Source: Candidatus Harrisonbacteria bacterium | GTDB lineage: Bacteria > Patescibacteriota > Minisyncoccia > UBA6257 > WO2-44-18 | DNA: 64,000 nucleotides | Direction: 5' to 3' | Assembly: GCA_016182295.1 (NCBI GenBank) | Contig: JACOXP010000007.1 | Location: forward strand, 11,457-75,456 | Shown here: positions 3,525 to 62,989 of the stretch, one piece after another | How positions within the stretch are numbered: the first letter of the stretch is position 1 | Layout of the letters: each line of letters begins with the position of its first letter | The notes under the pieces: model-generated | Database searches by the model: none | The model's input: only the letters and a program-made list of their open reading frames with translations | What the model was told of the DNA's origin: nothing | Made by a program: the position numbers and the translations under genes

Positions 3525-4706
3525 CTAAAATCTATGTTTGAATGCTCTCCTAAAACCAGCGTCTTCGGCTTCCTTGACGGTAAACGCGTAAAACTCACCT
3601 TCTTTATCGCCAACTATCGTTCGGTCGTATTGTTGATCCATAGGCAGGTGATAAATTTTGGTCTTTCGACCAGTTTCATCAACATTGATGTTGCATTTTA
3701 TTCTCGGAAACTCGCCAAGTGGTTTGTTTTCAATCACTTCTACACTCAACGCTTGTGCCATCTCTTTTGCCTTTTGTGATAAACTCGTCGAGGTAAAGAA
3801 TATTGGTCTTAAATGTTGCTCGTTGAGCAACTTTGAAAATGCCTCAAAACTTTTCTGATTGCGAGCACCACCGAAATATCTAATCCAATATTCCATTGTC
3901 GTTCCGAACAACTGGAAAACGTGTTTTTCGTGTATCTCTTTGTATTGTGCCCAGTGCTTACATTGGACAATACAGACATCGCCTCCCTTTGTTGCGATAA
4001 TGTCTCGACCGAGGTCTTCGAATCCGTCAATAATGCCTTTGTAGTGGATGTTGTACCCTTTTTGCGAGAATAGGTATCCGACATACATTTCATAATCTCT
4101 CCCGATAGCCCATTTTGATTTATTACGGTTTTTCAAATATCTATCTAACGCTCTTTGATTGCGCTCAACAGAAGGCAGACTTCTGTATTCTTCTGGGGTT
4201 AGATAATCTTTTACCCTGTCTTCATTTTCACCTTCTTCCGCTTCTCCGTCTACGCGAACAGGAATTTCCTCGTTTTCGTTTTCTGCAATTAGTTCAGAAA
4301 TCCACGGGAAAAGTTTCTCTAAGTAATGGAGTTTATAAAGGATAACTTTATTTTGTTTTAATAATTCTCGTTTTTCTTTCTTGATTTCTCGAACGGCTTC
4401 TGCGGCTGTATAGGCGGGGTGTCTTTTGTGTGTTAAATAATCTGCAAGTTTTCCGTCTCGCAATGCAAAATAATCCGCATACGCCTCAGCAAGCCACGGA
4501 AAGCCCATTGAACGCTGGCGCGTGATTTTTTCAATATGTTCGTGGGTAGCTTTCTTTTCTTTGGCAAATTTTTCTTTTTCGATATTGAGCGCATCAAGTT
4601 CGGGTTTCAACTTTCGATATAACTTGGCATCGGCAAAAGCATCTCGTATCCATGAGATAATCCCAAAGAGGATAAACAAACCTACGATTGCGAGTATCAA
4701 TTCCAT
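3525..4706 (-). CDS. Membrane-anchored protein with a coiled coil and a C-terminal Mrr-like restriction-endonuclease-fold (PD-(D/E)xK) domain
   Basis: N-terminal TM helix (ILAIVGLFILFGIISWI), then a K/E-rich coiled coil. The C-terminal half carries GRDYEMYVGYLF...DIIATKGGDVCIVQCKHW, which resembles the Mrr catalytic core. Confidence 0.5.
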   Translation of the reverse strand: MELILAIVGLFILFGIISWIRDAFADAKLYRKLKPELDALNIEKEKFAKEKKATHEHIEKITRQRSMGFPWLAEAYADYFALRDGKLADYLTHKRHPAYTAAEAVREIKKEKRELLKQNKVILYKLHYLEKLFPWISELIAENENEEIPVRVDGEAEEGENEDRVKDYLTPEEYRSLPSVERNQRALDRYLKNRNKSKWAIGRDYEMYVGYLFSQKGYNIHYKGIIDGFEDLGRDIIATKGGDVCIVQCKHWAQYKEIHEKHVFQLFGTTMEYWIRYFGGARNQKSFEAFSKLLNEQHLRPIFFTSTSLSQKAKEMAQALSVEVIENKPLGEFPRIKCNINVDETGRKTKIYHLPMDQQYDRTIVGDKEGEFYAFTVKEAEDAGFRRAFKHRF

Positions 4707-4711
4707 AATTT

Positions 4712-4936
4712 TTATGTCCGCATATCAAATTTTTCGGAAAATGTTTGGTCCGACAAATCGGCGAGAAGCATCCTTTTTTCTTGTTCTATCAATTTCATCA
4801 TGGCATCCGGTGTCATTTTTAACGAAATCGTTCCATAGAGATTTGTCGGCGCAACATGAGAATATCTTTTCGCAGCAATTTGTACGAAGTTTTTGTATAG
4901 CTCGCTCTTTTCTAAGTTCGAGGCTTTATCGAACAA
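4712..4936 (-). CDS. Hypothetical small protein; possibly the 3-prime half of a frameshifted gene
   Basis: 74 aa. It overlaps the upstream ORF by 25 nt near a homopolymer A run. Confidence 0.3.
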   Translation of the reverse strand: MFDKASNLEKSELYKNFVQIAAKRYSHVAPTNLYGTISLKMTPDAMMKLIEQEKRMLLADLSDQTFSEKFDMRT

Positions 4937-5124
4937 AAAACTAAGTGCAATGGCGCGCTTCCATGCATGGCGGTATAAAGCCGCTTCCTGATTTTTTGAC
5001 GCTCTCGGCGTGAACGGCTTTGTTTCGAGTAAAAACTGTTCAAAGCGTTCTTCAAGACGCTTCCGAGCCTCGGCGCGTTCAAGTCGTTTTTTTTCCAGTT
5101 ATCAATAAAAGATCTAATACCCAT
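4912..5124 (-). CDS. Hypothetical small basic protein; possibly the 5-prime half of a frameshifted gene
   Basis: 70-aa ORF that runs directly into ORF 4712..4936. Confidence 0.3.
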   Translation of the reverse strand: MGIRSFIDNWKKNDLNAPRLGSVLKNALNSFYSKQSRSRRERQKIRKRLYTAMHGSAPLHLVFCSIKPRT

Positions 5125-5210
5125 ATGTAAACATTGTAAAGTTTTCTTGAGGTTTTTCCCAAAGTACGGTTTAATGGGAATCGGTCGGGCACAAAATAAG
5201 GGATTTTAAA

Positions 5211-5669
5211 CTAAGTGTCGCTTCGTGAAGAACCAGGAAGATTTTTCGAAATTTCTCTGTGTTCACTTATGCCTCTTGGCATATAATTGCCCATCCGGAG
5301 AACATGCCCGATAGCCGAAATGAAATTGTATTTCTTTGCATACTTTATGAATTTTTTATTCTCCTCGACCATATTTTGTGCCTCAACATATTTCATGAAG
5401 TTATCGGCACCATCACTAAGGGTTTGAGGGGTTATCGATTTCTCAACCAGTTGAGCCATTTTTTTAAGTAATTCTTCTTGAAGCGGCAATGAGCGTTCTA
5501 TTTCATCAGCGTATGCCGACAAACGCCTTTTCTCCTTTTTTGAAAATAGATATATAAGAATAGCGATTGGTGTTGCACCACCAACTACTGTAAAGAAGGA
5601 AGACACAAAAGGCACCATGATATTATTTGAAGCGAACTGCGTCAACAAATTCAAGAAATAAATTAGCAT
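5211..5669 (-). CDS. Hypothetical membrane protein
   Basis: Two N-terminal hydrophobic helices. No recognisable family. Confidence 0.45.
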   Translation of the reverse strand: MLIYFLNLLTQFASNNIMVPFVSSFFTVVGGATPIAILIYLFSKKEKRRLSAYADEIERSLPLQEELLKKMAQLVEKSITPQTLSDGADNFMKYVEAQNMVEENKKFIKYAKKYNFISAIGHVLRMGNYMPRGISEHREISKNLPGSSRSDT

Positions 5670-5960
5670 GTCTAAAAAGTTTGATTAATTGCCGAGCTTG
5701 CCCGGTCTCTCGAACGGGCGCTCAATCCTGCGGTGTGTCTCGGACTTGAACTTGGCTAATGCAAGCAGTATAAGGCTTTTTTGAGCGTCTGAAAAGAACT
5801 GAACTTGAGGCACTCGGGTTAGAAGATGCTTTTATTGTAGCTGAGTTTCGCATCAATTAAGTTGATGCGCCACCTATTTTAATCTTTCAATCTCCACCTT
5901 GTAAGGATATTCTAGCGAGTTTTTTCGGTGCTGGGTGAGGTCTCCGGGTCGGCATCTGTT

Positions 5961-6590
5961 TCAGTAAGACAAAAGGGGGCAAAAGAAGATAAGATACAAA
6001 AAGTCAAAAACAAAGAAAGAACTAAAAAGTACGAGCGTTCCTGTAATCATCAACACGTACACAGTCCGAGAATATATAGAAGGAATAGATCTATCTTTTT
6101 CGGTCTTAAAAAGATTTATGGATTCTTTATCAATCTCATTTAATTCTTTAAAAGCTGTTTTGCTGATGGTACGGGTAGAAATCCAACTATTGTAGAGAAC
6201 CATGAATTTCTCGTTTCTTTTTTCGTAAAACTCAATCAGTTTACGACGTTCGTCTTCAATTGATTTAAATTCTGCTTGGTATTTCTGCTGTGTCCAAAAG
6301 AGCCCGTAGAAAAGAGAGCCAAGCAAAAGAATTTCTCCGACAAAGAAAAGAGGAACGCTTTGGACATACCCAAAAGCTGTAAAACCAAAACCAGCTATTA
6401 AACCAACTGCACCGATAACTGTTGCAGCAAACCCGATGGACTTAAAGTAAATATCCAACTGTTTTGTTCCTAAATCCTCAAGAACTCGTCCTTGGAGCTG
6501 CAGGCTATTCGAGCCGAAATTGTCGTAAAATTCCTTAAACAACGTATCGTCCAAAAGAATTTGGTCTGGATTTTCGTGCGGTTTTTGCAT
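5961..6590 (-). CDS. Hypothetical membrane protein
   Basis: Several hydrophobic segments (AATVIGAVGLIAGFGFTAFGY; TGTLVLFSSFFVF). Confidence 0.45.
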   Translation of the reverse strand: MQKPHENPDQILLDDTLFKEFYDNFGSNSLQLQGRVLEDLGTKQLDIYFKSIGFAATVIGAVGLIAGFGFTAFGYVQSVPLFFVGEILLLGSLFYGLFWTQQKYQAEFKSIEDERRKLIEFYEKRNEKFMVLYNSWISTRTISKTAFKELNEIDKESINLFKTEKDRSIPSIYSRTVYVLMITGTLVLFSSFFVFDFLYLIFFCPLLSY

Positions 6591-13729: not shown

Positions 13730-14398
13730 ATGCCAATACATCGAACAAAAAATGAAAATTTCTTTAAGAAGTGGTCGCCGAAAATGGCATACGTGTTGGG
13801 TTATACATGCGCGGATGGAGCTTTAACTGTTGGTAAGCGGGGAAACAAGTTTTTGGATTTCACTTCTGTGGACGAAAGTCTTATACAAACCGTTCGCGCG
13901 ACACTCGACTCTAATCATAAAATAAACCGTAAAACCAGAAAGGAAAATTGGCGCCCGGCTTACAGATTACAAATCGGCAGCAAGACTATGTTTGACGATT
14001 TGGGAAAATTGGGATTGACAACCAAAAAAGCAAAACGCTTAGTTTATCCGGATGTTCCCAAAAAGTACTTCGCGGACTTTGTTAGAGGATATTTCGACGG
14101 CGATGGACACGTTAGCCACGGCGCGTATAAAAGGAAGGGTGGAAATGGGGTAAAACAAGTTCTGCTTTCGGGTTTGACGTCGAGCACCAAAAGTTTTTTA
14201 GAAAAACTTAGAAATGATTTAACAAAATTGGGTATTGTGAGTGGTGGTACTCTGTATTACAAAAAGGGGCACCGACTTACATTCTCAATTAACGATAGTT
14301 TTGGTCTATACGAATTCCTTTACAAAAACGCGGGGTATGGCTTATACTTACAAAGGAAAAAGAGAGTTTTCGAGAAATTTTTTAGAATGCGGGCGTAG
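13730..14398 (+). CDS. LAGLIDADG homing endonuclease with two motifs, free-standing
   Basis: Two dodecapeptide motifs: YVLGYTCADGAL and FVRGYFDGDGHV. The stop codon lies inside the first 10 nt of the downstream tRNA-Asp. Confidence 0.8.
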   Translation: MPIHRTKNENFFKKWSPKMAYVLGYTCADGALTVGKRGNKFLDFTSVDESLIQTVRATLDSNHKINRKTRKENWRPAYRLQIGSKTMFDDLGKLGLTTKKAKRLVYPDVPKKYFADFVRGYFDGDGHVSHGAYKRKGGNGVKQVLLSGLTSSTKSFLEKLRNDLTKLGIVSGGTLYYKKGHRLTFSINDSFGLYEFLYKNAGYGLYLQRKKRVFEKFFRMRA

Positions 14399-14463
14399 CG
14401 TAGCCTGGTTATCGCGCCTCCTTGTCACGGAGGAGATCGCCGGTTCAAATCCGGTCGCCCGCG
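14389..14463 (+). tRNA. tRNA-Asp (anticodon GTC)
   Basis: GCGGGCG acceptor stem pairs with CGCCCGC. Anticodon loop TTGTCAC. T-arm GCCGGTTCAAATCCGGT. Discriminator G. No CCA encoded. Confidence 0.8.
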
Positions 14464-14467
14464 CAAG

Positions 14468-20223: not shown

Positions 20224-20988
20224 TTATAAAAGACCGTAAAACCAGCGAATTGGGATTTGGCCAAAAAGTAAAACCAAAACGGCGGCTAGAGAGAGAAAAG
20301 GGCCGAAAGGAACCGCCATTTTCAAGGATTTCCTGTTGAAAACCACCATAAAAAAGCCGACTAGACCGCCCAAAACGAAAGCGGCCGAAATGATAAGCAA
20401 AACTTCCCTGACTCCGAAAAGCAGACCAAGCGCCGCCGCTAATTTAACATCGCCGATCCCCATTCCCCGCCCCCTGGTAATTACCACTATTAACCCCAGT
20501 AAAGCCGCTCCAAAAACAGCGCCGGCCGCGTTATTCCATAAAATATCCATCAGCGAAGCTCCGCTTGATATGATCAATGTTGCTCCCAGCACGCCGATCA
20601 GCAGGTTTAACTGATCGGGAATTACCATTAACCGCATATCAATCAAGGTTATTAAAACAAGCGTCAAAACTACGGGTACCCAAATCAGCGCCGGTTGAGC
20701 AAGCATCGGGATAAAAGCGAGCGCGAATCCGGAAATTAATTCGACTATGGGGTATTGCCAGGTCAGCGGGGCTCGGCAACTGCGGCAACGGCCAAATTGC
20801 AAAATGAAACTGGCCAGGGGAATTAACTCGTACCAGGCAAGTGTTTTTTTGCAACCTCGGCAAAACGACCGCCCGCGCAAAACATCCGGTCTGAAAAGGC
20901 GGCCGCCGGCTTCATAACGAAGCGAAAGGACGTTGAGAAAACTTCCAACAGAAAGACCGATTAGAAAACGGATGACTCCCAAAAACAT
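20224..20988 (-). CDS. pilD: Type IV prepilin peptidase (A24 family) with an N-terminal Zn-binding domain
   Basis: CRGC...CRSC tetracysteine followed by polytopic A24 peptidase helices. Confidence 0.8.
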   Translation of the reverse strand: MFLGVIRFLIGLSVGSFLNVLSLRYEAGGRLFRPDVLRGRSFCRGCKKTLAWYELIPLASFILQFGRCRSCRAPLTWQYPIVELISGFALAFIPMLAQPALIWVPVVLTLVLITLIDMRLMVIPDQLNLLIGVLGATLIISSGASLMDILWNNAAGAVFGAALLGLIVVITRGRGMGIGDVKLAAALGLLFGVREVLLIISAAFVLGGLVGFFMVVFNRKSLKMAVPFGPFLSLAAVLVLLFGQIPIRWFYGLL

Positions 20989-22055
20989 TAAACTTTGCCA
21001 ATTAACACTCTTAACTCGGCTGGATTAAGAGAATAAAGTTCCGCGTTTTCGCGGGTGATTTTCTTCGCCTTGACCAACTGCGCCAACGAACGATTTAAGC
21101 TAATCATGCCGGACGCCAAACTCGTTTCGATTACCAAATCCAGCTGATGAGTTTTGCGTTCCCGGATAAGATTTCGGACCGCCGTATTGACTATTAAAAT
21201 TTCCGCCGCGGCAACGCGGCCGCCGCCTATTTTAGGAATTAATCTTTTAGAAACAATTCCGGCAAGCGTTGCCGCAAGCTGAATAATCGCCTGATTTTGT
21301 TTCTCCGGCGGGAAGCTGTCAATAATGCGATCGATGGTTTGCGCGGCAGAATTGGTATGAAGAGTGGAAAAAACCAAATGACCCGTCTCGGCGGCCGTCA
21401 AAGCGGTTGAAACCGATTCTAAATCGCGCATTTCGCCGATCATTACCACGTCCGGATCTTGCCGGAGAACGGTTTTTAAAGCGGCGTGGAAGTCCTGGGT
21501 GTCGGAATAAACCTCTCTTTGGGAAATCAAAGAATTTTTTGGAACAAAAATATGCTCGATCGGATCCTCAATGGTAATTATATGCTCCCGACGACTCGCG
21601 TTTATCTCATCAAGCAAAGCGGCCAAGGTTGCTGATTTGCCATGGCCCGCCGGCCCTACCGCTAAAATAAATCCTTGGTTAAGTTTGGAAAAATTATGGA
21701 GCACCGGCGGCATTTCCATATCTTCAATCGTCATTATTTTCTCCGGAATATGACGAAAAGCCGCCGCCACAAACCCCCGTTCGTAATAAACGTTGACCCG
21801 AAAGCGGGTTTTGTCGTGCGTATAGCTAAAATCAATTTCCAGATTTTTTTGAAACCTCGCTTGTTGATCCGGAGTAAGCAAAGCGGCAACAAAATTCTCG
21901 GCGATTTCCGGCGTAACCACCGGCTCTTCGGGAATCGGCTGCAAAAAACCGTCCTCTCGAACGTGGGGTTTCAAACCGACGTTAAAATGAAAATCGGAAA
22001 CATTGGGCTGACTCGCTTTCACCATCAGCCGCGCGAGGTAATCTTTATAGTCCAT
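20988..22055 (-). CDS. pilT: Type IV pilus retraction ATPase PilT (twitching motility protein)
   Basis: Walker A GPAGHGKSAT, Asp box, His box TLHTNSAAQTIDRI; 355 aa. Confidence 0.85.
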   Translation of the reverse strand: MDYKDYLARLMVKASQPNVSDFHFNVGLKPHVREDGFLQPIPEEPVVTPEIAENFVAALLTPDQQARFQKNLEIDFSYTHDKTRFRVNVYYERGFVAAAFRHIPEKIMTIEDMEMPPVLHNFSKLNQGFILAVGPAGHGKSATLAALLDEINASRREHIITIEDPIEHIFVPKNSLISQREVYSDTQDFHAALKTVLRQDPDVVMIGEMRDLESVSTALTAAETGHLVFSTLHTNSAAQTIDRIIDSFPPEKQNQAIIQLAATLAGIVSKRLIPKIGGGRVAAAEILIVNTAVRNLIRERKTHQLDLVIETSLASGMISLNRSLAQLVKAKKITRENAELYSLNPAELRVLIGKV

Positions 22056-22710
22056 TTACAACAGCAAAGGGCGAAGACGCGGTTATAATTCTTTTAATTT
22101 TCTTTTTCTCCGCCAATAATCTTGCTTTTTCCATTATAACATCTTCGGCATTCGAAACCAAAGAAAAATCGCTCTGGGAAACAAAATGTGCCTTTCCCCC
22201 GCTGGCGATTGTAAAAGTAGTCGAGCGTTCACCCACATCGATGATTAAAGTTGGCTCTGCCGAACGGGCAAATTGGCGAGCCAGGGGAAAACTTTCAATT
22301 TCCAAACGCGCCAAACGCAAACCGGCGGCGGCAAAGATTCTCTTGTACTTCAATATCACCTCTCGCGGAACGGCAAGTAAAAAATAACGGCCGTCATTTA
22401 ACTTAATCGCGTCCATTTTATACAAAGACGGCGCGGCTGGAATATATTTGGGATCCGGCGTCGGCGCCACGGTTGTAAAAGCGTTAAAAGCCGGCAATGA
22501 AGCCGCCGCCCAATAGGACTGGGATTCCATTCTGGAAAGCAGAGTTTTTAAACAATTAGCGGCTTCGCGTTCATTAAGCGGCTGAATACTGGTGTGAAAA
22601 GGCCCGTCCAAACGCCGAAGCTCGGCCTTCTTTAAAATCCTGCCGGTCGAATCTTTTTCCGCCGCTTTTATTGAAGTTGTACCGATATCTATGCAAAGAT
22701 AAATAGCCAT
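22045..22710 (-). CDS. pilM: PilM-like actin-fold type IV pilus assembly protein
   Basis: Start trimmed to the internal MAIYLCIDIGTTSIKAAEK, which is the PilM/FtsA N-terminal phosphate-1 motif. Confidence 0.6.
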   Translation of the reverse strand: MAIYLCIDIGTTSIKAAEKDSTGRILKKAELRRLDGPFHTSIQPLNEREAANCLKTLLSRMESQSYWAAASLPAFNAFTTVAPTPDPKYIPAAPSLYKMDAIKLNDGRYFLLAVPREVILKYKRIFAAAGLRLARLEIESFPLARQFARSAEPTLIIDVGERSTTFTIASGGKAHFVSQSDFSLVSNAEDVIMEKARLLAEKKKIKRIITASSPFAVVNGL

Positions 22711-23383
22711 GGCTTTTCTCTGTATGCTAATAAAATTATTCAATAAAATCAAAACTTTTGTTCTGGACGCTGTTTTTCCAATACCGGAGATTCGGGAAAA
22801 TATCAGACTCAATCAGACGCTTTTCTGCCCGACTTGCCGCGCTCGGCAAGCGCGCAACGTAAAAATTTGCCATCGGGACACGCCGTATAAATTGGGCGCC
22901 GCCACCGCTTATCTTGATCCGGTTAAAAAATTAATTTGGAGAATGAAGTACCGGAATAAAGCCGGATACGCCCCGATCCTTGCTGATTTACTTTGCCAGT
23001 ACATTAGAAATTCTAAATTAGTAATTAGAAATTTTATTGTAGTGCCTCTGCCGCTTTCGGAGAAAAGGTTCCGAGATCGCGGTTACAATCAGGCTGCCTT
23101 GATTGGGAAAATTGTTTCTGCAAAATTTAACCTGGAGTATAACGATAAGACGCTGATAAGAATCAAACACGCCAAACCGCAAGCCGAATTAAAAGATTGG
23201 GACGAACGGAAAAAGAATATTATCGGCTGTTTTTCTGTCGCCCATCCACCGCTTATCAAAAATAGGAATATCATCGTTATTGACGATGTTTTCACTTCCG
23301 GAGCCACCATGAGCGAAGCCGTACAAACATTAAAATTGGCTGGCGCTCGAAGAATTATTGGTCTCGTCGTGGCGAAAGTTTAG
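22709..23383 (+). CDS. comF: ComF family competence protein (phosphoribosyltransferase-like)
   Basis: N-terminal CPTC Zn finger and a C-terminal PRTase motif IVIDDVFTSGATM. Divergent from pilM. Confidence 0.75.
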   Translation: MAFLCMLIKLFNKIKTFVLDAVFPIPEIRENIRLNQTLFCPTCRARQARNVKICHRDTPYKLGAATAYLDPVKKLIWRMKYRNKAGYAPILADLLCQYIRNSKLVIRNFIVVPLPLSEKRFRDRGYNQAALIGKIVSAKFNLEYNDKTLIRIKHAKPQAELKDWDERKKNIIGCFSVAHPPLIKNRNIIVIDDVFTSGATMSEAVQTLKLAGARRIIGLVVAKV

Positions 23384-26067: not shown

Positions 26068-26517
26068 ATGGGTGCCGAGCATTTAAACCGTTTCCGATTT
26101 TATACCTGGAAAGAGTTTGAAACCGATGTCAAAAAAATTTCAAAAATTATTGGAGCGCTGGACCAAAAATTTGTCTACATTTACGGATTGCCTAAGGGCG
26201 GGCTGCCGCTGGCAGTTTGCCTCGCGCATCGTCTTGAATTAAGACTAACGACCACTTTAAGGTTTAAGGAGGGCTTGTCCATTGTTTGGCATGATGAGGT
26301 TTTGGTGGTTGACGATATCGCGGATACGGGAAGAGCCTTGGAAAATTATAAAAAACTCGATTACTTGATCGCAACGCTCTTTTGGAATCCGAAATCGAGT
26401 TTTAGGCCAGATATTTGGATCCGAGAAAAAGATAATCGCTGGATCATTTTCCCCTGGGAAGATCGGGAAAAAGAAATGGCGCACGCCGAAAAAATCATGA
26501 ACCCCGACGCAAACTAG
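26068..26517 (+). CDS. Small phosphoribosyltransferase-domain protein
   Basis: Type I PRTase PRPP-binding loop VLVVDDIADTGRAL. Confidence 0.55.
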   Translation: MGAEHLNRFRFYTWKEFETDVKKISKIIGALDQKFVYIYGLPKGGLPLAVCLAHRLELRLTTTLRFKEGLSIVWHDEVLVVDDIADTGRALENYKKLDYLIATLFWNPKSSFRPDIWIREKDNRWIIFPWEDREKEMAHAEKIMNPDAN

Positions 26518-26535
26518 TCGGGGTTTTTATTTTTG
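26502..26535. terminator. Rho-independent terminator
   Basis: ccccgac-gcaaactagt-cggggttttt. Confidence 0.55.
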
Positions 26536-26551
26536 CGGAGGGTGTAGGAGT
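26525..26551. repeat. Direct repeat copy of the tRNA-Ser(TGA) 3-prime end (27 nt)
   Basis: ttttatttttgcggagggtgtaggagt is identical to 26746..26772. Confidence 0.8.
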
Positions 26552-26640
26552 TTCGCTTCGCTCCGTGGCTGCCGCCCGGAGCTCGCCGAACCATAACGCC
26601 GCACCCCGACCCCCACACTGGACACCTTTGGGTTTCCAGC

Positions 26641-26674
26641 GCCCAAGTGGTCTGACGCGTCAGACCACTTGGGC
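26641..26674. repeat. Perfect 34-nt palindrome
   Basis: gcccaagtggtctgacg|cgtcagaccacttgggc lies in the GC-rich insert. Confidence 0.8.
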
Positions 26675-26716
26675 TGCCTTCCAACACGGGGTGCAGCTCG
26701 GTCCGACTCCCCACCA

Positions 26717-26755
26717 GAAAAATAAAACATGCCACTTGCGGCATGTTTTATTTTT
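26717..26755. terminator. Bidirectional terminator-like hairpin abutting the tRNA 3-prime end
   Basis: aaaaataaaacatgcc-acttgc-ggcatgttttattttt. Confidence 0.5.
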
Positions 26756-26756
26756 G

Positions 26757-26838
26757 CGGAGGGTGTAGGAGTCGAACCTACTAGGGCTTGCGCCCATCCG
26801 CTTTCAAGGCGGACGCATTACCGTTCTGCCAACCCTCC
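26757..26838 (-). tRNA. tRNA-Ser (anticodon TGA)
   Basis: Reverse complement is GGAGGGT...anticodon loop CTTGAAA...long variable arm...GGTTCGACTCCTACACCCTCCG. Confidence 0.85.
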
Positions 26839-26851
26839 AAAAAAAGCAAGG

Positions 26852-27331
26852 TTACAAAACCTTGCGAAAAACGTTTTTTTTCACTTTGACGAACCCGAGC
26901 TTTTTATATAATTTCTGCGCCGCCTTGCGCTCCGGACGAGAAGTCAGCTCGACAAAACGCGCCGTTCTTGATCCGGCAACTACGAAAAGTTCCGATAGGA
27001 GCCGTTCGGCGATGCCTTTTCCGCGACACTGCTCATCCACTACTACGTCCTCGATTCGGCAAATCAAACCCGTATATTTCAATTGGAAAAAAATACTTGC
27101 CATTCCGACAGCCCGCATTCCCGCGCAAAGATCGTTGTCAATCGCGAAAGCGGTAAAAAAGTTTCCCTGATGCCAAATCCGGATAAGATCTTTCAAGGTA
27201 ACGGGTACGGCCACCGAAGAAAGCTGCGGAAGCAAACGGTTGATCGAAGGGACCAGTTTAGCTAATTCCTCAATCTCGTCCGCGTTGCGATCGCGCGCGC
27301 ACTCCAGTCGAATCTCAATCATCGGGCTCAT
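26852..27331 (-). CDS. GNAT family N-acetyltransferase
   Basis: QCRGKGIAERLL and KLYKKLGF are acetyl-CoA-binding motifs. Confidence 0.75.
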   Translation of the reverse strand: MSPMIEIRLECARDRNADEIEELAKLVPSINRLLPQLSSVAVPVTLKDLIRIWHQGNFFTAFAIDNDLCAGMRAVGMASIFFQLKYTGLICRIEDVVVDEQCRGKGIAERLLSELFVVAGSRTARFVELTSRPERKAAQKLYKKLGFVKVKKNVFRKVL

Positions 27332-29037: not shown

Positions 29038-29081
29038 TCCTTCCTCCTTTTGAGAGCTCGTAAGTTTTTCAAAGAACCCTG

Positions 29082-29152
29082 TGGACCTAGCCAGAATCGA
29101 ACTGGCGCTTCCTCATTGCAAATGAGGTGTTCTACCACTGAACTATAGGCCC
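29082..29152 (-). tRNA. tRNA-Ala (anticodon TGC)
   Basis: Reverse complement is GGGCCTATAGTTCAGTGGTAGAAC...TTTGCAA loop...TTCGATTC...TAGGTCCA, with a G3:U70 pair. Confidence 0.8.
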
Positions 29153-29157
29153 TTGGC

Positions 29158-29174
29158 GGAGACGGGAGGATTCG
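29158..29174. repeat. Direct repeat of the tRNA-Ser(CGA) 3-prime end (ggagacgggaggattcg), about 150 nt downstream of the tRNA
   Basis: Identical 17-mer at 29307..29323. The copy continues as ...cgcc with a tRNA-like CCA end on the minus strand. Confidence 0.75.
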
Positions 29175-29305
29175 CCTACAAGTCGCTCGGCCTTCCGGCC
29201 TCGCGCTAGCAGGCCGCCCCTCGCGGCCGTGCTCGTCACCTCGCTCGCACGGCATCGCTGCGGTCTTCGAATCCTCAAACAAGCCAAGCAGTTGGCTTGT
29301 TTTTG

Positions 29306-29392
29306 CGGAGACGGGAGGATTCGAACCTCCGAAGCCCTTTCGGACTTACCGCATTTCGAGTGCGGCGCATTCGTCCACTCTGCCACGTCTCC
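29306..29392 (-). tRNA. tRNA-Ser (anticodon CGA)
   Basis: Reverse complement is GGAGACGTGGCAGAGTGGACGAATGCGCCGCACTCGAAATGCGG, followed by a long variable arm, then GGAGGTTCGAATCCTCCCGTCTCCG. Confidence 0.85.
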
Positions 29393-59689: not shown

Positions 59690-62600
59690 CTAACGCAATC
59701 TGACATTTCTTAACCTGACGTGGCCTCGCAGGCGCAGGATTTCCGGTTTCTCTATGGATATTTCCGGATAAGTCGTGTAACCGCCTCCGCCTTCCTGCGC
59801 GAAAGAACCGCCGCCGGATTGAACGGCTTGTAAACAAAAGGTTTTTCCGCCCTTCGCCACGGTATCCAGCGAAGTCGTGGAAACCGACAAAGCGAAATCA
59901 AAAAGCATGCTGGCGCCGGCGTCAACGGTTCCCTGGGAGCTGGTAAAATTATTGGATTCGTTATAGGTCTGATTGACTACCGCGTGGCTGGTGCTGGTAG
60001 CCGCGTATCGCGGATCCTGATAATTGGCCGTCAAGGCCGCCCCATCGGAAGGGGTGAAGTTATCCGCCCAAGTCATAGCGGTCGTGCCGCCCACATCGCT
60101 GAAAGAAGCCGAAGAACAGCCGCCTCCCGGTTTTTCGCCAACCTGAAGACGGCTGGTGGTGGAAGTAAGATCGTTATCGCCGCCAACATCAAAGAGTAAT
60201 CTTAAACGAATCGGGGTCCCCGATTCCGGAGCGATAATCGGCGTGTTGTAACCGCCGGCGCCGCCAACGTCGGTTGAATCGTCATTAGCAAACCAGCGGT
60301 AAGCAATTTGAGTTAAATTAGTCGCTGTCGTTGGGGCCTCGACCGCTTCAGTGGTAAACGTGCTACACCCCGAATCGGTGTAGGCATTAGTGTCATCCGG
60401 ATCCCTCGCTGATGCTTTCCACCAGTATTGCGTGCTGTTGGATAACGCGTCATCCGAATTTAGGGTATAACTTCCCTGCGTGCCGGAAGTGAAACATTGG
60501 GCGGGCTCGTTGGTGCAAACGGCGTTCGTTCCCGACCAGGTATTTTCGTAAGTGTAAAGCGCTCCGCCATTGACCCCGGCTATCAGATTAGTGCCGTCCG
60601 AATCCGTGGCAACACCCCACCAGCTCAAGTTCGTATCTCCGGCCGGTCGGCGTTCGTACCAATTTTCTCCGGAATCCCACGAAGTCCAAAGCCGGGTAGT
60701 TTCCCCGGCGATTAAAAAAGATCCGTCGCTGTCGGCGTCGACTCCCTGCCAGGATTTACTAAGCAAGCCGTTTTTACCAGTAGATTGGGCATACGACCAA
60801 GTGGAGCCCGTACTGGAAGACATCCAAAGCGCGCCGCCATTGATCGAGCCGACCATAAAAGTGCCGTCGTCATCAAGAGCGGCGCCCCAAAAATTGCCAG
60901 ACAATTCACTGACCCAATTCTGACCGGAATCTATCGAAGACCAAAGACCAACGCCTTCCGCTCCAAGAAGGACAGAACCGTCGGAGTCAGCCGCTGAATG
61001 TCGCCAGTCATTAGGCGAACCGACGCCCGCGGCCGCGCCCCAATTAGCTCCGGAGTCGGTTGAAAACCAAAGCTCGCCGGTGGTGGCGGCATCAAACACT
61101 CCGGCAATCAGCACGGAACCATCGGCGTCAGAACCGGCGCCTCGCCAATAACGGGTATTGTTCCCATCCGGCTGACGTTCATCCCAATTAGCTCCGCCAT
61201 CACTGGAGGTGTAAAGACGGTCCGCGGTACTGGCGCCAGCGATCAGATTGGAACCATCGCTGTCGGAGTCAATGGCTCGCCATTCTTTATTTAAAGCTCC
61301 GGCCGGCTGACGTTCGTCCCAGGTGGCGCCATAATCATCGGAAGTGTAAAGTCGGCCGGCATTTTGCCCCGCGATTAGATTGGAACCGTCAGAATCGGAG
61401 CCGACGCCGAACCAGGAATTAGTTCCGGACAGACGCAACTCCCAAGCATCGGCTTCATCATGCGTCTGAAGAACGGTGGTGCAACTACTTTCCGAATAGA
61501 TAGTAATTTTATAATTGATATTGCTGGAATTCGGATCGGTCGCGGTTACAAGAAAAGTCGGAGTGACGGAAACGCCAGTAGCGGCATCCGCTGGTGAATC
61601 TTGGGTAGGGGCGTTCGGCGGCGAAATCGTGCCGCTTTCATGAGTGAGAGTGTTGGCAGCCGACATAAAAATCATATCCCATTGAGAGCCGGCGTCGTCT
61701 ACTTTGGCGTTCGGCCAGCTGTTGCCGGTGCCGGAATTGATCGTCGCGCCTGAATCCCAATCCGTGCTTGCGACCCAATCAGTAGCGGTTGAACCAGGCG
61801 CTTCGATAAATTGCCGGACTATATTTCCCGAAGAATTTTTCGTAAAAAGCGCGTAATAATCGGGAGTTGATCCGGCGTAGAAAGTCAGCGTCGGCTGGGC
61901 GTTAACGTTGCCTTCGGTAGTGCTGTCGCTGGATCTTTTTGTAGAAGCGGAAGTGCCGCCGTCTTTGTCTATAAACCAAGTATTCAAACAATAGGCGCTG
62001 GCGCCTGAACAGAAAGTAGAGCCGTTAGAAAACCAAGTAACCAGAACGCGGCTGTTGGTGGAATCGGCCAGAGAATTGACGTAAAGATAGCTGGTCGCGG
62101 AAACGGTTTCCCCGTCTTTGGAAGTTACGCTTTGCCAGGTCCAGGTCGGCGGAGTGTCGCCACAGCTGTTAACGCAATTTGCCACGACGTATTTCAACGG
62201 ATCATCGACTTCTGAGAAAAAAAGATACAAACGTTTGGCGGCCGTGCCGGCGCCAGGCATTTGCTCAACGGAGGCTATAAAATTCTTGCTTTTTGCTTGG
62301 GAATCATAAATTGTGTCTATAGTTCCATCGCCGCTTGTGGCTGAAACGCCGCCCCAGTTGGAGCTCGCGGCGCCAGTGCATGTGCCAATGCAACGGATGT
62401 AGTAAACACCGGAAGCGGAGGTTGGTCCGGCGGTGGTTTTTGTGAAAACAACTCCGGGCTTGTTGTTGTGGGTCAGCACTATGCCCGGCCGGTAATTTTC
62501 ATTGTTGGAGGCGCCGGCGGCCAAAGTATTATCACCGGCGAAAGTTATGTCGGAAATATCATTTCCGGAATATACTATCGTCGCTTCCGCGTAGACAATT

Positions 62601-62989
62601 GACTGCCTGTTGGAAACGGTCGCCTGATAAGCAAGAAGGAGTTTGTTGTTGGTTGTGTCATGAACGGCCTGCACATTGCTGACGGCGGTGCCGATAGTTC
62701 CGCTGTCGGTCGTCCAGCTGGAACAGCCGGAATTGCAATAGGCAACCTGAATGACGCTGCTGGTATTGATAAAGACGGCCAGCCGGTTGTCGTTTGAATC
62801 GCGAAACAATTTTCGGCCGTTGGAATACTGGGTGGAATTGGCCAAAGCGGCCGTTGACACCGTCGTCGCCGCTTTGGCTTGCTTAATTTCCGGAGGGAAA
62901 TTTAAAACCCGCGGAAAAGGCGAAAATGTCCATCCCGCGATGATAAAAAAGACGATAAAAAATCTGATTATTTTCCTAGTTTTTGCCAT
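59690..62989 (-). CDS. Giant (1099 aa) secreted/anchored protein with a BNR/Asp-box beta-propeller
   Basis: N-terminal hydrophobic anchor. At least six S-x-D-x-G-x-[TN]-W repeats: LYTSDDYGATWDE, LYTSSDGGANWDE, WFSTDSGANWG, WSSIDSGQNWV, WMSSSTGSTWS, WTSWDSGENWYE. Ser/Thr/Gly-rich throughout. Confidence 0.75.
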   Translation of the reverse strand: MAKTRKIIRFFIVFFIIAGWTFSPFPRVLNFPPEIKQAKAATTVSTAALANSTQYSNGRKLFRDSNDNRLAVFINTSSVIQVAYCNSGCSSWTTDSGTIGTAVSNVQAVHDTTNNKLLLAYQATVSNRQSIVYAEATIVYSGNDISDITFAGDNTLAAGASNNENYRPGIVLTHNNKPGVVFTKTTAGPTSASGVYYIRCIGTCTGAASSNWGGVSATSGDGTIDTIYDSQAKSKNFIASVEQMPGAGTAAKRLYLFFSEVDDPLKYVVANCVNSCGDTPPTWTWQSVTSKDGETVSATSYLYVNSLADSTNSRVLVTWFSNGSTFCSGASAYCLNTWFIDKDGGTSASTKRSSDSTTEGNVNAQPTLTFYAGSTPDYYALFTKNSSGNIVRQFIEAPGSTATDWVASTDWDSGATINSGTGNSWPNAKVDDAGSQWDMIFMSAANTLTHESGTISPPNAPTQDSPADAATGVSVTPTFLVTATDPNSSNINYKITIYSESSCTTVLQTHDEADAWELRLSGTNSWFGVGSDSDGSNLIAGQNAGRLYTSDDYGATWDERQPAGALNKEWRAIDSDSDGSNLIAGASTADRLYTSSDGGANWDERQPDGNNTRYWRGAGSDADGSVLIAGVFDAATTGELWFSTDSGANWGAAAGVGSPNDWRHSAADSDGSVLLGAEGVGLWSSIDSGQNWVSELSGNFWGAALDDDGTFMVGSINGGALWMSSSTGSTWSYAQSTGKNGLLSKSWQGVDADSDGSFLIAGETTRLWTSWDSGENWYERRPAGDTNLSWWGVATDSDGTNLIAGVNGGALYTYENTWSGTNAVCTNEPAQCFTSGTQGSYTLNSDDALSNSTQYWWKASARDPDDTNAYTDSGCSTFTTEAVEAPTTATNLTQIAYRWFANDDSTDVGGAGGYNTPIIAPESGTPIRLRLLFDVGGDNDLTSTTSRLQVGEKPGGGCSSASFSDVGGTTAMTWADNFTPSDGAALTANYQDPRYAATSTSHAVVNQTYNESNNFTSSQGTVDAGASMLFDFALSVSTTSLDTVAKGGKTFCLQAVQSGGGSFAQEGGGGYTTYPEISIEKPEILRLRGHVRLRNVRLR

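Follow-up and report, generated by a model that had tools for sequence, protein, structure and literature searches.

A short insertion that duplicates the 3' end of a tRNA-Ser gene in Candidatus Harrisonbacteria, probably one copy of a family of protein-less mini-elements in Patescibacteria

Introduction

In a 64,000-nt stretch of a Candidatus Harrisonbacteria metagenome-assembled genome (GenBank assembly GCA_016182295.1, contig JACOXP010000007.1, positions 11,457 to 75,456 of the forward strand), hereafter called the window, the 3' end of a tRNA-Ser(TGA) gene is present twice, and the two copies bracket a short GC-rich insert. The host belongs to the Patescibacteria, or candidate phyla radiation. 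The locus raises the question of what kind of sequence can duplicate the end of a tRNA gene in this way. An earlier interpretation made from the letters of the DNA, here called the sequence-only reading, had taken the duplication for the classic attL/attR footprint of an integrase, and had proposed a degraded or miniature integrative element or a small structured RNA locus as its source. In the present analysis, the insert is probably one copy of a widespread Patescibacteria family of small (~115-330 bp), protein-less, non-autonomous insertion elements. We found no description of such a gene-end-duplicating family, and there is a substantial chance that its mechanism is new in kind.

Results

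Anatomy of the insert at tRNA-Ser(TGA)

The 27-mer TTTTATTTTTGCGGAGGGTGTAGGAGT has exactly two copies in the window (Table 1), where 0 are expected from shuffled sequence. The proximal copy (S) comprises the last 17 nt of tRNA-Ser(TGA) and a 10-nt trailer, and its tRNA part begins on the 3' side of the T-loop, takes in the T-stem and the acceptor strand and ends with G73 and C74. The gene itself (minus strand, 26756/7-26838) is intact; the tRNA is left functional, and its duplicated 3' end is the 27-nt repeat. Between the copies lie 194 nt (26552-26745) with a GC content of ~64% overall and 65-67% in 100-nt windows, as compared with 44.7% for the whole window, and this insert folds far better than its shuffled counterparts (z = -8.2). 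The direct repeat, the GC-rich insert, the perfect 34-nt palindrome within it and the terminator-like hairpins at both ends (26499-26526 and 26728-26745) had all been pointed out in the sequence-only reading, and all were recovered here. The same reading had regarded the open reading frames (ORFs) across the insert as non-coding, and by exact look-up they are indeed absent from a collection of 15 billion proteins; the 76-amino acid (aa) insert ORF gave one weak, repetitive match (P0041) among 1.84 billion representatives searched with HMMER.

Read along the minus strand, the tRNA with S is followed by its trailer AAAAATAAAA, a terminator-like hairpin (H), TTTTATTTTT, an inverted copy of part of the tRNA (X, CTGGTGGGGAGTCGGACC), a core of ~150 nt, the distal repeat copy (S') and a terminator at 26499-26526 that is common to the upstream phosphoribosyltransferase gene. 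The pairing of X with the tRNA is given by an inverted repeat (I13, 26700-26710 against 26768-26778), in which GGAGTCGGACC of X complements GGTTCGACTCC of the tRNA. Hairpin H forms the tip of a longer, imperfect palindrome, the arms of which lie at 26710-26733 and 26740-26763, and S, H and X jointly form a long imperfect palindrome (I1). This architecture (S, optionally H, X, core and S'), in which X inverts 10-20 nt of the target at the junction, S' leads on into the downstream DNA originally present, and both flanks are cognate to the local target, is found in both instances present in the window: the one at tRNA-Ser(TGA), termed instance 1, and a second at tRNA-Ser(CGA), termed instance 2.

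That the repeat might be an assembly artefact had been considered possible. Both junctions of instance 1 recur in independent Logan assemblies of four sequencing runs, each carrying one or the other, and the locus is not an artefact of assembly. The distal junction is present in the assemblies of SRR12113430 and SRR12113384, and the proximal junction in those of SRR12113430, SRR12113383 and SRR12113384. Two assemblies (L001 and L002; contigs and loci other than the window carry L numbers) both end at window base 26580, 29 nt inside the insert, and this common stop suggests a branch in the assembly graph, i.e. a variant or a further copy. Three others (L003-L005) begin at 26645, within the palindrome, because of k-mer self-complementarity. 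On the other side of the tRNA, the terminator hairpin of a GNAT acetyltransferase gene (26846-26865, minus strand) stops 7 nt from the tRNA 5' end, which leaves tRNA-Ser(TGA) without an obvious promoter of its own.

Table 1. Features of the two insertions, in window coordinates.
Feature	Position	Strand	Basis or remark
tRNA-Ser(TGA), target gene of instance 1	26756..26838	-	ARAGORN; Rfam tRNA model 58.7 bits
S, proximal repeat copy: functional tRNA 3' end (17 nt) and 10-nt trailer AAAAATAAAA	26746..26772	-	
H, terminator-like hairpin CATGCC/GGCATG between A-run and T-run	26728..26745	-	inverted repeat I1
X, T-loop, T-stem 3' strand and beginning of the acceptor of the tRNA, copied in inverse orientation and partly degenerate	26700..26717	-	
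Structured core, subtype without hairpin hpA	26552..26699	-	fold z-score, homology to L127/L251, covariation
Long-range helix in core	26598-26608 with 26687-26697		
Conserved block in core	26620-26690		
Optional perfect palindrome hairpin in core	26641-26674		
Hairpin equivalent to family hairpin Pb	26618-26639		
GCGAAGC mini-hairpin in core	26552-26564		
S', distal repeat copy: displaced or duplicated tRNA 3' end and trailer	26525..26551	-	Logan contigs L001, L002
tRNA-Ser(CGA), target gene of instance 2	29305..29392	-	
Instance 2, whole	29153..29323	-	same layout as instance 1
S of instance 2	29305-29323		
H of instance 2	29277-29302		
X of instance 2	29266-29276		TTCGAATCCTC on plus strand
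Core of instance 2, 91 nt, GC-rich	29175-29265		
S' of instance 2	29156-29174		CGAATCCTCCCGTCTCCGC

The same core in a sister species and in other lineages

A sister species (contigs L127, L128, L130 and L251), with a phosphoribosyltransferase 56% identical to that of the window and the same gene order, has an insert downstream of the same tRNA-Ser(TGA). Across a 72-nt block, the cores of instance 1 and L127/L251 are 90% identical (local alignment score 107, against a maximum of 34 for shuffled queries), whereas identity in the surroundings is 64% for the adjacent tRNA, 59% for the phosphoribosyltransferase gene and 52% for the GNAT gene. The palindrome is retained in the sister species with a compensatory change (C/G to A/T, GGTCTGACGCGTCAGACC to GGTATGACGCGTCATACC) and is an optional hairpin module of the core. 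The X of L127 differs so as to match perfectly that genome's own, different T-arm. The distal copy, which in the window equals the local tRNA 3' end exactly, is in L127/L251 (CTCACCCCTTCCGC; L127 3425-3440) the 3' end of that genome's tRNA-Ser(CGA) (L251 4170-4198) and not of the local tRNA-Ser(TGA).

One genome per species was scanned with a tRNA-Ser 3'-end pattern, and extra copies of tRNA 3' ends were sought downstream of every tRNA in the fetched loci, excluding those inside other tRNAs. The order tRNA, hairpin, inverted T-arm copy, core and direct copy from the T-loop onward recurred at Ser, Leu and Arg tRNAs, including loci of Parcubacteria (L025, L124), Lloydbacteria (L014), Saccharibacteria (L020, L031, L048, L072, L084) and others. 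Contig CAYSDF010000005.1 from Saccharibacteria (L048) has three such loci at tRNA-Ser genes, and since two of them contain a homologous hairpin, the repeats form a family inside a single genome. In one of its loci (L048b) the distal copy carries the T-arm of another tRNA-Ser. At several loci a genome-encoded CCA is kept in the distal copy and missing from the proximal copy; uninterrupted tRNA-Ser(CGA) genes of relatives mostly encode CCA.

The element of the sister species shares a 32-nt block with an element at tRNA-Leu (L080), and 21 nt of this block, GGTCGGGAAACGGNAGTTTCC, served as the pattern for a metagenome scan that matched at least 120 contigs. Seventy-five of the 121 motif matches are located 22-182 nt downstream of a tRNA on the same strand (all but two at no more than 85 nt), with 29 anticodons represented. 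In 67 non-redundant tRNA-linked copies the insert measures 116-328 nt, with a median of 166. The 5' hairpin of the core, hpA (GGGAAGGGGTCGGGAAACGGNAGTTTCCCG), is nearly invariant, which is partly owed to the search pattern. The outer pairs of another hairpin, Pb, covary, with three to four Watson-Crick pair types at three consecutive positions, and the cores also bear optional hairpin modules, often mini-hairpins of the GCGAAGC type. Folding favours the gene-sense over the antisense strand in 104 of 110 cores (-37.8 vs -32.7 kcal/mol), a difference to which the G-richness of the sense strand contributes, and G-U pairs number 301 in sense and 93 in antisense. We infer that the element is active in single-stranded form, as RNA or as DNA, with the polarity of the gene-sense strand. 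The suggestion of a small structured RNA locus was correct in part, namely for the conserved structured core, its compensatory changes and its clear strand asymmetry.

In the subtype to which instance 1 belongs, hpA is replaced by a long-range helix, GAGCUGCACCCCG with CGGGGUGCGGCG, around the middle of the core. Members of this subtype are also present at tRNA-Ile(TAT) in L165 and at tRNA-Arg(CCT) in L251, and one pair of the helix is U-G, C-G or A-U across these three copies. Cores related to that of instance 1 are those of L165, L189 and the tRNA-Arg element of L251. A profile of the hpA-type core had no match in the window (nhmmer, E <= 10); this hidden Markov model is dominated by hpA and misses instance 1 because that hairpin is lacking there.

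Flanks that follow the target

The relation between flanks and target was examined in the 67 non-redundant tRNA-linked copies, using 63 different tRNA 3' ends. To the left of the core (X), the median exact match to the reverse complement of the local tRNA is 10 nt, compared with 5 nt for non-cognate tRNAs (p = 1e-20), and to the right (S') the corresponding match to the local tRNA 3' end is 15 nt, compared with 6 nt (p = 4e-33). Of 56 copies, 46 have an S' that starts within T-loop positions 5-8. No fixed motif precedes the core, whose left flanks finish with GAAC, AGCT, GATC, CCGT and CTTC, among others. In many copies (e.g. L145, L142, L176, and L167) the T-loop part of S' reads GTGAGAT and not GTTCGAT (TC to GA), and in 14 of the 67 (e.g. 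L072, L080, L083, and L084) X is GAGAAC rather than TCGAAC. The recurrence of this exchange of two bases in independent copies suggests that function constrains it, for example through tandem G-A pairs or protection from re-targeting.

The targets are not restricted to tRNA genes. Forty-six motif matches lie more than 200 nt from any tRNA, and many of these adjoin a protein gene with one end duplicated. Eight contigs have the core beside a second 3' end of rplL (L7/L12); further cases are the H+-pyrophosphatase gene, with a second 3' end from the GDPYKDT motif, dnaK (Hsp70), with a second 5' end at the IDLGTTNS motif, and others, with confirmation from Pfam. At protein genes the functional gene end is followed by an inverted copy of 12-20 nt of the breakpoint, the core and a diverged second gene end. 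Because this layout runs outward from the gene end, the core is antisense to the gene at 5'-end targets.

Gain and loss of elements

Empty sites in relatives had been proposed as a check, and they were found. On the 14-kb sister contig L251 the tRNA set and order correspond to those of the window between 26.7 and 49.5 kb, except that the tRNA block between its two Ser genes is inverted relative to the window. The tRNA-Ser(TGA) site is filled in both genomes, in the window by instance 1. The junction of tRNA-Ser(CGA) and tRNA-Ala(TGC) is split by instance 2 in the window and empty in L251, where the two genes abut at 4198/4199. Conversely, tRNA-Arg(CCT) has no element in the window and one of the instance 1 type in L251. 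This differing occupancy between sister species shows that the elements are gained and lost. In addition, tRNA-Ser(CGA) and tRNA-Ala of the Saccharibacteria locus L032 are separated by CA only, which is another empty site, and L115 corresponds to the filled L025 locus without its element, the right flanks of the two being identical.

The second instance in the window

The sequence-only reading had pointed to a second instance at 29152..29330. It is real, lies downstream of tRNA-Ser(CGA) and has the same architecture as instance 1, with a repeat of 19 nt exact, or 22 nt with one mismatch (29153-29174 and 29302-29323). The insert is 127 nt long and reaches 72% GC in 100-nt windows. Read in the direction of the tRNA, its X is GAGGATTCGAA, complementary to TTCGAATCCTC, and S' is followed by CAA and then at once by tRNA-Ala(TGC) at 29081-29152. 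When the rest of the window was searched for direct-inverted-direct triples and gene-end duplications, no loci other than these two tRNA-Ser genes were found. A 14-nt repeat at 61039/61183 was rejected as a further instance, as it falls within a repeat protein.

Searches for known relatives and for an enzyme

A covariance-model check, also proposed earlier, was made with Rfam 15 at gathering and at permissive thresholds on the window and ten family loci, and returned tRNA models and no other RNA family. Instance 1 and a canonical element had no match in phage and plasmid collections (blastn), and two junction-pattern and two core-pattern scans of 2.9 million viral contigs were likewise negative. 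Clustering of the ORFs within 3.5 kb of 120 cores gave housekeeping genes only, with no recurrent recombinase, reverse transcriptase or nuclease, and no integrase domain was detected among the 29 window ORFs scanned with Pfam. Full-text literature searches, including the motif string, gave no description of the family, most subscription journals being outside their coverage; what they matched were unrelated primers and papers dealing with tRNA gene fragments in general.

Several other candidates for the insert or its core were rejected. A template repeat/variable repeat pair of a diversity-generating retroelement does not fit, as S and S' do not differ specifically at adenines. For a group I or group II intron the core is too small, and it is without their boundary motifs. 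The fourth G-run of a possible G-quadruplex is not conserved, and a small ORF starting from GTG in GACGTGAGAT is unsupported.

Discussion

A probable mobile element with target-derived ends

The insert at tRNA-Ser(TGA) is an insertion with a duplicated tRNA 3' end and a miniature element, as the sequence-only reading had considered possible, and not random sequence. The element would be mobilised in trans, and the choice of target would be encoded in nucleic acid. X and S' may form a stem that mimics the target or pairs with it; alternatively, X may pair with S across the hairpin. Either pairing would give a duplex identical to the chromosomal target, as in a folded attC, the attP of CTX phage and, loosely, guide RNAs. 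One core could reach dozens of targets because the X/S' stem would specify the target, and the fact that the flanks vary with the target while the core is constant points to recognition by base pairing.

More tentatively, and with the chances somewhat against it, these elements may constitute a new class of protein-less mobile element, with a nucleic-acid-programmed target and a core of ~100 nt between the inverted X and S'. The flanked core would then be the substrate or the guide of an enzyme acting in trans (a recombinase, an HUH nuclease, a reverse transcriptase or an RNA-guided nuclease), which would insert the element wherever X can pair, the broken gene end being rebuilt in the process. 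Should this hold, insertion by this system would be reprogrammable by nature and would require very little in cis, and the streamlined genomes of Patescibacteria (~1 Mb) would host an abundant selfish or domesticated element without a gene of its own. The targets are among the most conserved sequences of the cell, and damage would be avoided through the duplication of the gene end. The usefulness of CRISPR, TnpB and bridge-RNA systems stems from recognition by base pairing, and the cis element of the present family measures just ~100-200 nt. The conserved motif, the two subtypes and the filled and empty sites offer a concrete family for experiments.

Where the element begins and ends can be drawn in two ways. 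In one, the break is at the conserved motif (the T-loop in tRNA genes) and the element would bring a replacement gene end, which is favoured by the protein-gene cases and by the tight T-loop junction. In the other, the insertion point would directly follow the gene end, and S' would belong to the element as its 3' terminus; this is favoured by L127/L251 and L048b, in which S' matches another tRNA.

A number of observations weigh against the interpretation as a mobile family. The two boundary parses predict opposite outcomes, and the data on them are mixed. No enzyme has been identified, and neither a circular or excised form nor a transcript was observed; the Pfam scan covered ~30 of the 65 window ORFs, so that a trans-acting enzyme could be overlooked. 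Mobility is deduced from the patchy distribution and from a core far more similar than its flanks, and the high conservation of the core could instead mean purifying selection on a host function and not recent transfer. Furthermore, instance 1 does not have hpA, the most conserved hairpin of the family, nor does instance 2. The core of instance 2, compared with 120 elements, gave a local alignment score of 25 where the shuffle maximum averages 23, and as it has no significant similarity to any member, instance 2 is placed in the family on its architecture alone.

Alternative explanations

We rank the alternatives in the order homing, decayed integrase islands, a vertically inherited cis-acting RNA and template switching. 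In intronless homing, which we regard as unlikely, a nuclease encoded elsewhere (a free-standing homing endonuclease or an RNA-guided enzyme) would cut the conserved target, and repair from an occupied allele, for instance on DNA taken up by naturally competent bacteria, would co-convert the gene end, X and the core, the core being a passenger or the scaffold of the nuclease guide. The targets are indeed typical of homing elements (the tRNA T-loop, IDLGTTNS of DnaK, GDPYKDT of the H+-pyrophosphatase and the C-terminus of L7/L12), S and S' of the protein genes are diverged as donor and recipient alleles would be, and a core followed by a target-identical segment of 15-20 nt resembles a scaffold with its guide. 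The window also encodes a LAGLIDADG protein directly upstream of tRNA-Asp, as well as competence and pilus genes. However, the great majority of copies have no linked nuclease gene, and confirmation as LAGLIDADG proteins was not obtained for the helix-turn-helix ORFs that precede two tRNAs with elements. An occupied allele would moreover keep an intact target, the gene being restored, hence with no obvious immunity to cutting, and the tRNA homology to the right of the break is just 15-27 nt. Improbable, in our judgement, is the origin that the sequence-only reading had raised, in which islands were inserted into the T-loop of tRNA-Ser by a tyrosine integrase and later lost nearly all of their length, leaving attL and attR ~200 bp apart. 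In favour of it, the direct repeats are exact and extend as far as the tRNA 3' end from the T-loop, one known sublocation of integrase crossover (Williams 2002, cited in PMC9897764); the 1.8-kb integrase-less cargo at one Saccharibacteria locus has a further repeat copy at its boundary, which recalls tandem island arrays, and the repeats of L036 and L057 start in the anticodon arm and have short spacers. Of the footprint, the insertion next to a tRNA gene and the duplication of the tRNA 3' end stand, but not the classic integrase attL/attR pair or the degraded island. The searches above found no integrase in or near the inserts and no homology in viral, phage or plasmid sequences, two independent deletions would be needed, each sparing a perfect att pair, and the same core abuts the junction in more than 100 loci with 29 anticodons and protein genes. 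A decaying island would not yield the inverted target copy X, which is foreign to att remnants, and the island reading is therefore not supported; nor does a simple attL/attR model predict that S' of L251 matches a tRNA-Ser other than the local one.

An immobile, vertically inherited cis-acting RNA of benefit to the host (in 3'-processing, termination or insulation, or as a tRNA-like decoy), with X and S' as its closing helix, is given little credence here. It would fit the sense-strand bias and the G-U pairs, which suggest RNA, as well as the compensatory changes, a core better conserved than the neighbouring genes and the many copies without hairpin H, which would be co-transcribed with the tRNA. 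It does not fit an occupancy that differs in both directions between syntenic sister species, or the orthologous tRNAs of related genomes, which mostly have no element. The core and the gene have opposite sense at 5'-end targets, dnaK among them, a strong terminator stands ahead of it in instance 1, and tandem and nested copies exist; besides, a cis signal has no need of a duplicated gene end. Replication template switching at terminator hairpins, in which a quasi-palindrome is extended to give a direct-inverted-direct arrangement with no dedicated element, appears very improbable. S, H and X do form a long imperfect palindrome about the hairpin loop (I1 and I13, and likewise in L025 and L124), and two switches are expected to leave the direct-inverted-direct order; such switching cannot explain a conserved foreign core of 60-150 nt across phylum-level lineages or the copies without H, and the sequences after S and S' differ. 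The conserved core family largely refutes it as the sole explanation.

Comparison with known systems

The preferred interpretation, a family of protein-less insertion elements, shares features with several known systems. Like integrative elements at tRNA genes and cis-mobilisable elements (CIMEs), the family inserts at the T-loop, duplicates the 3' end as a direct repeat, leaves the gene intact and forms tandem arrays. In contrast to these, its members are 115-330 bp long, one core serves dozens of targets including protein genes, and every copy bears an inverted copy of the target; of the hallmarks of a tyrosine-integrase island, the T-loop direct repeat is present, whereas an integrase or its remains are not found nearby. 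An imperfect inverted repeat around a structured center, with a strand bias, is also seen in integron attC sites and in the attP(+) hairpin of CTX-phi, which is recombined by XerCD. The folded element would likewise present a target-mimicking duplex, and these sites can be non-coding and ~60-150 nt long. The arms of the family, however, copy the targeted gene rather than a fixed recombinase site or R-box, and there is no integron integrase context; GTTRRRY or dif-like core sites were not noticed, no formal scan having been made for them.

A scaffold combined with copy-specific target segments is known from the bridge/seek RNAs of IS110/IS1111, the omega RNAs of IS200/IS605 TnpB/IscB and the exon- and intron-binding sites (EBS/IBS) of group II introns, and this likeness would permit retargeting through nucleic acid alone. 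Unlike the family, these guide-RNA elements encode a protein in cis and do not duplicate gene ends; bridge RNA has its guides in internal loops, and the omega RNA guide is on one side only. No Rfam model matched the family, those of HEARO type included, and its left flanks share no fixed target motif. Insertions of free-standing homing endonucleases resemble it in using conserved motifs of essential genes and in placing a replacement end beside the displaced, decaying original, but the family has a conserved non-coding core where the endonuclease ORF would be. Finally, miniature inverted-repeat transposable elements (MITEs), REP/BIME, RPE and PATE are similarly short, non-coding, hairpin-rich and multi-copy. 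Their likeness ends at the termini, as the inverted termini of the family derive from the target and the duplication extends 10-100 nt or more to the gene end instead of having a fixed short length. The fixed tetra- or pentanucleotide of an IS200/IS605-derived MITE (PATE) is absent, and the gene-end duplication is always present.

Other observations

The ORF with a LAGLIDADG_3 homing-endonuclease domain (222 aa, E = 3e-16) occupies 13730-14398 on the plus strand of the window, directly upstream of tRNA-Asp (14389-14464), the start of which it overlaps; no mini-element follows this tRNA. Related ORFs of ~220 aa with an N-terminal helix-turn-helix and a LYWGEG motif were seen in L193 (45-711), at the contig start of L196 and also in L239. 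Those of L193 and L196 lie just upstream of element-bearing tRNA-Ile and tRNA-Arg genes, and Pfam confirmed their helix-turn-helix alone, without confirming LAGLIDADG. Elsewhere in the window, the minus strand encodes a protein with an Mrr-type restriction endonuclease domain (3525-4706), a prepilin peptidase and a type II/IV secretion ATPase beside a ComF-like gene (20224-22812; competence or pilus), and a protein of 1099 aa with repeats of the DSDGSNLIAG type (59690-62989), which is the source of internal DNA repeats.

Some loci contain more than one unit. In the Saccharibacteria contig L048, three element-bearing tRNA-Ser genes are located within 8 kb (4375-6457 and 1700-1906), and in an array there a mini-element of 176 nt precedes a 1.8-kb segment that contains two ORFs (one of 119 aa, and a membrane protein of 266 aa) and no integrase; at the end of this segment the tRNA 3' end appears for the third time. 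Two cores lie between one tRNA-Asp and its S' in L137 (1037-1300), two successive units follow one tRNA-Ser in L020, 290 downstream, at a locus with an assembly gap, and L135 has two copies (1313 and 3494) on one contig of 6.8 kb. Duplications of a different kind were observed in L036 (Paceibacterota), where a 62-nt repeat from the anticodon arm has a spacer of only 37 nt, in L057 (Verrucomicrobiota), with three tandem units of 140 nt that each start from the anticodon loop, and in L119, where tandem repeats of 33 nt include the 3' end of tRNA-Val.

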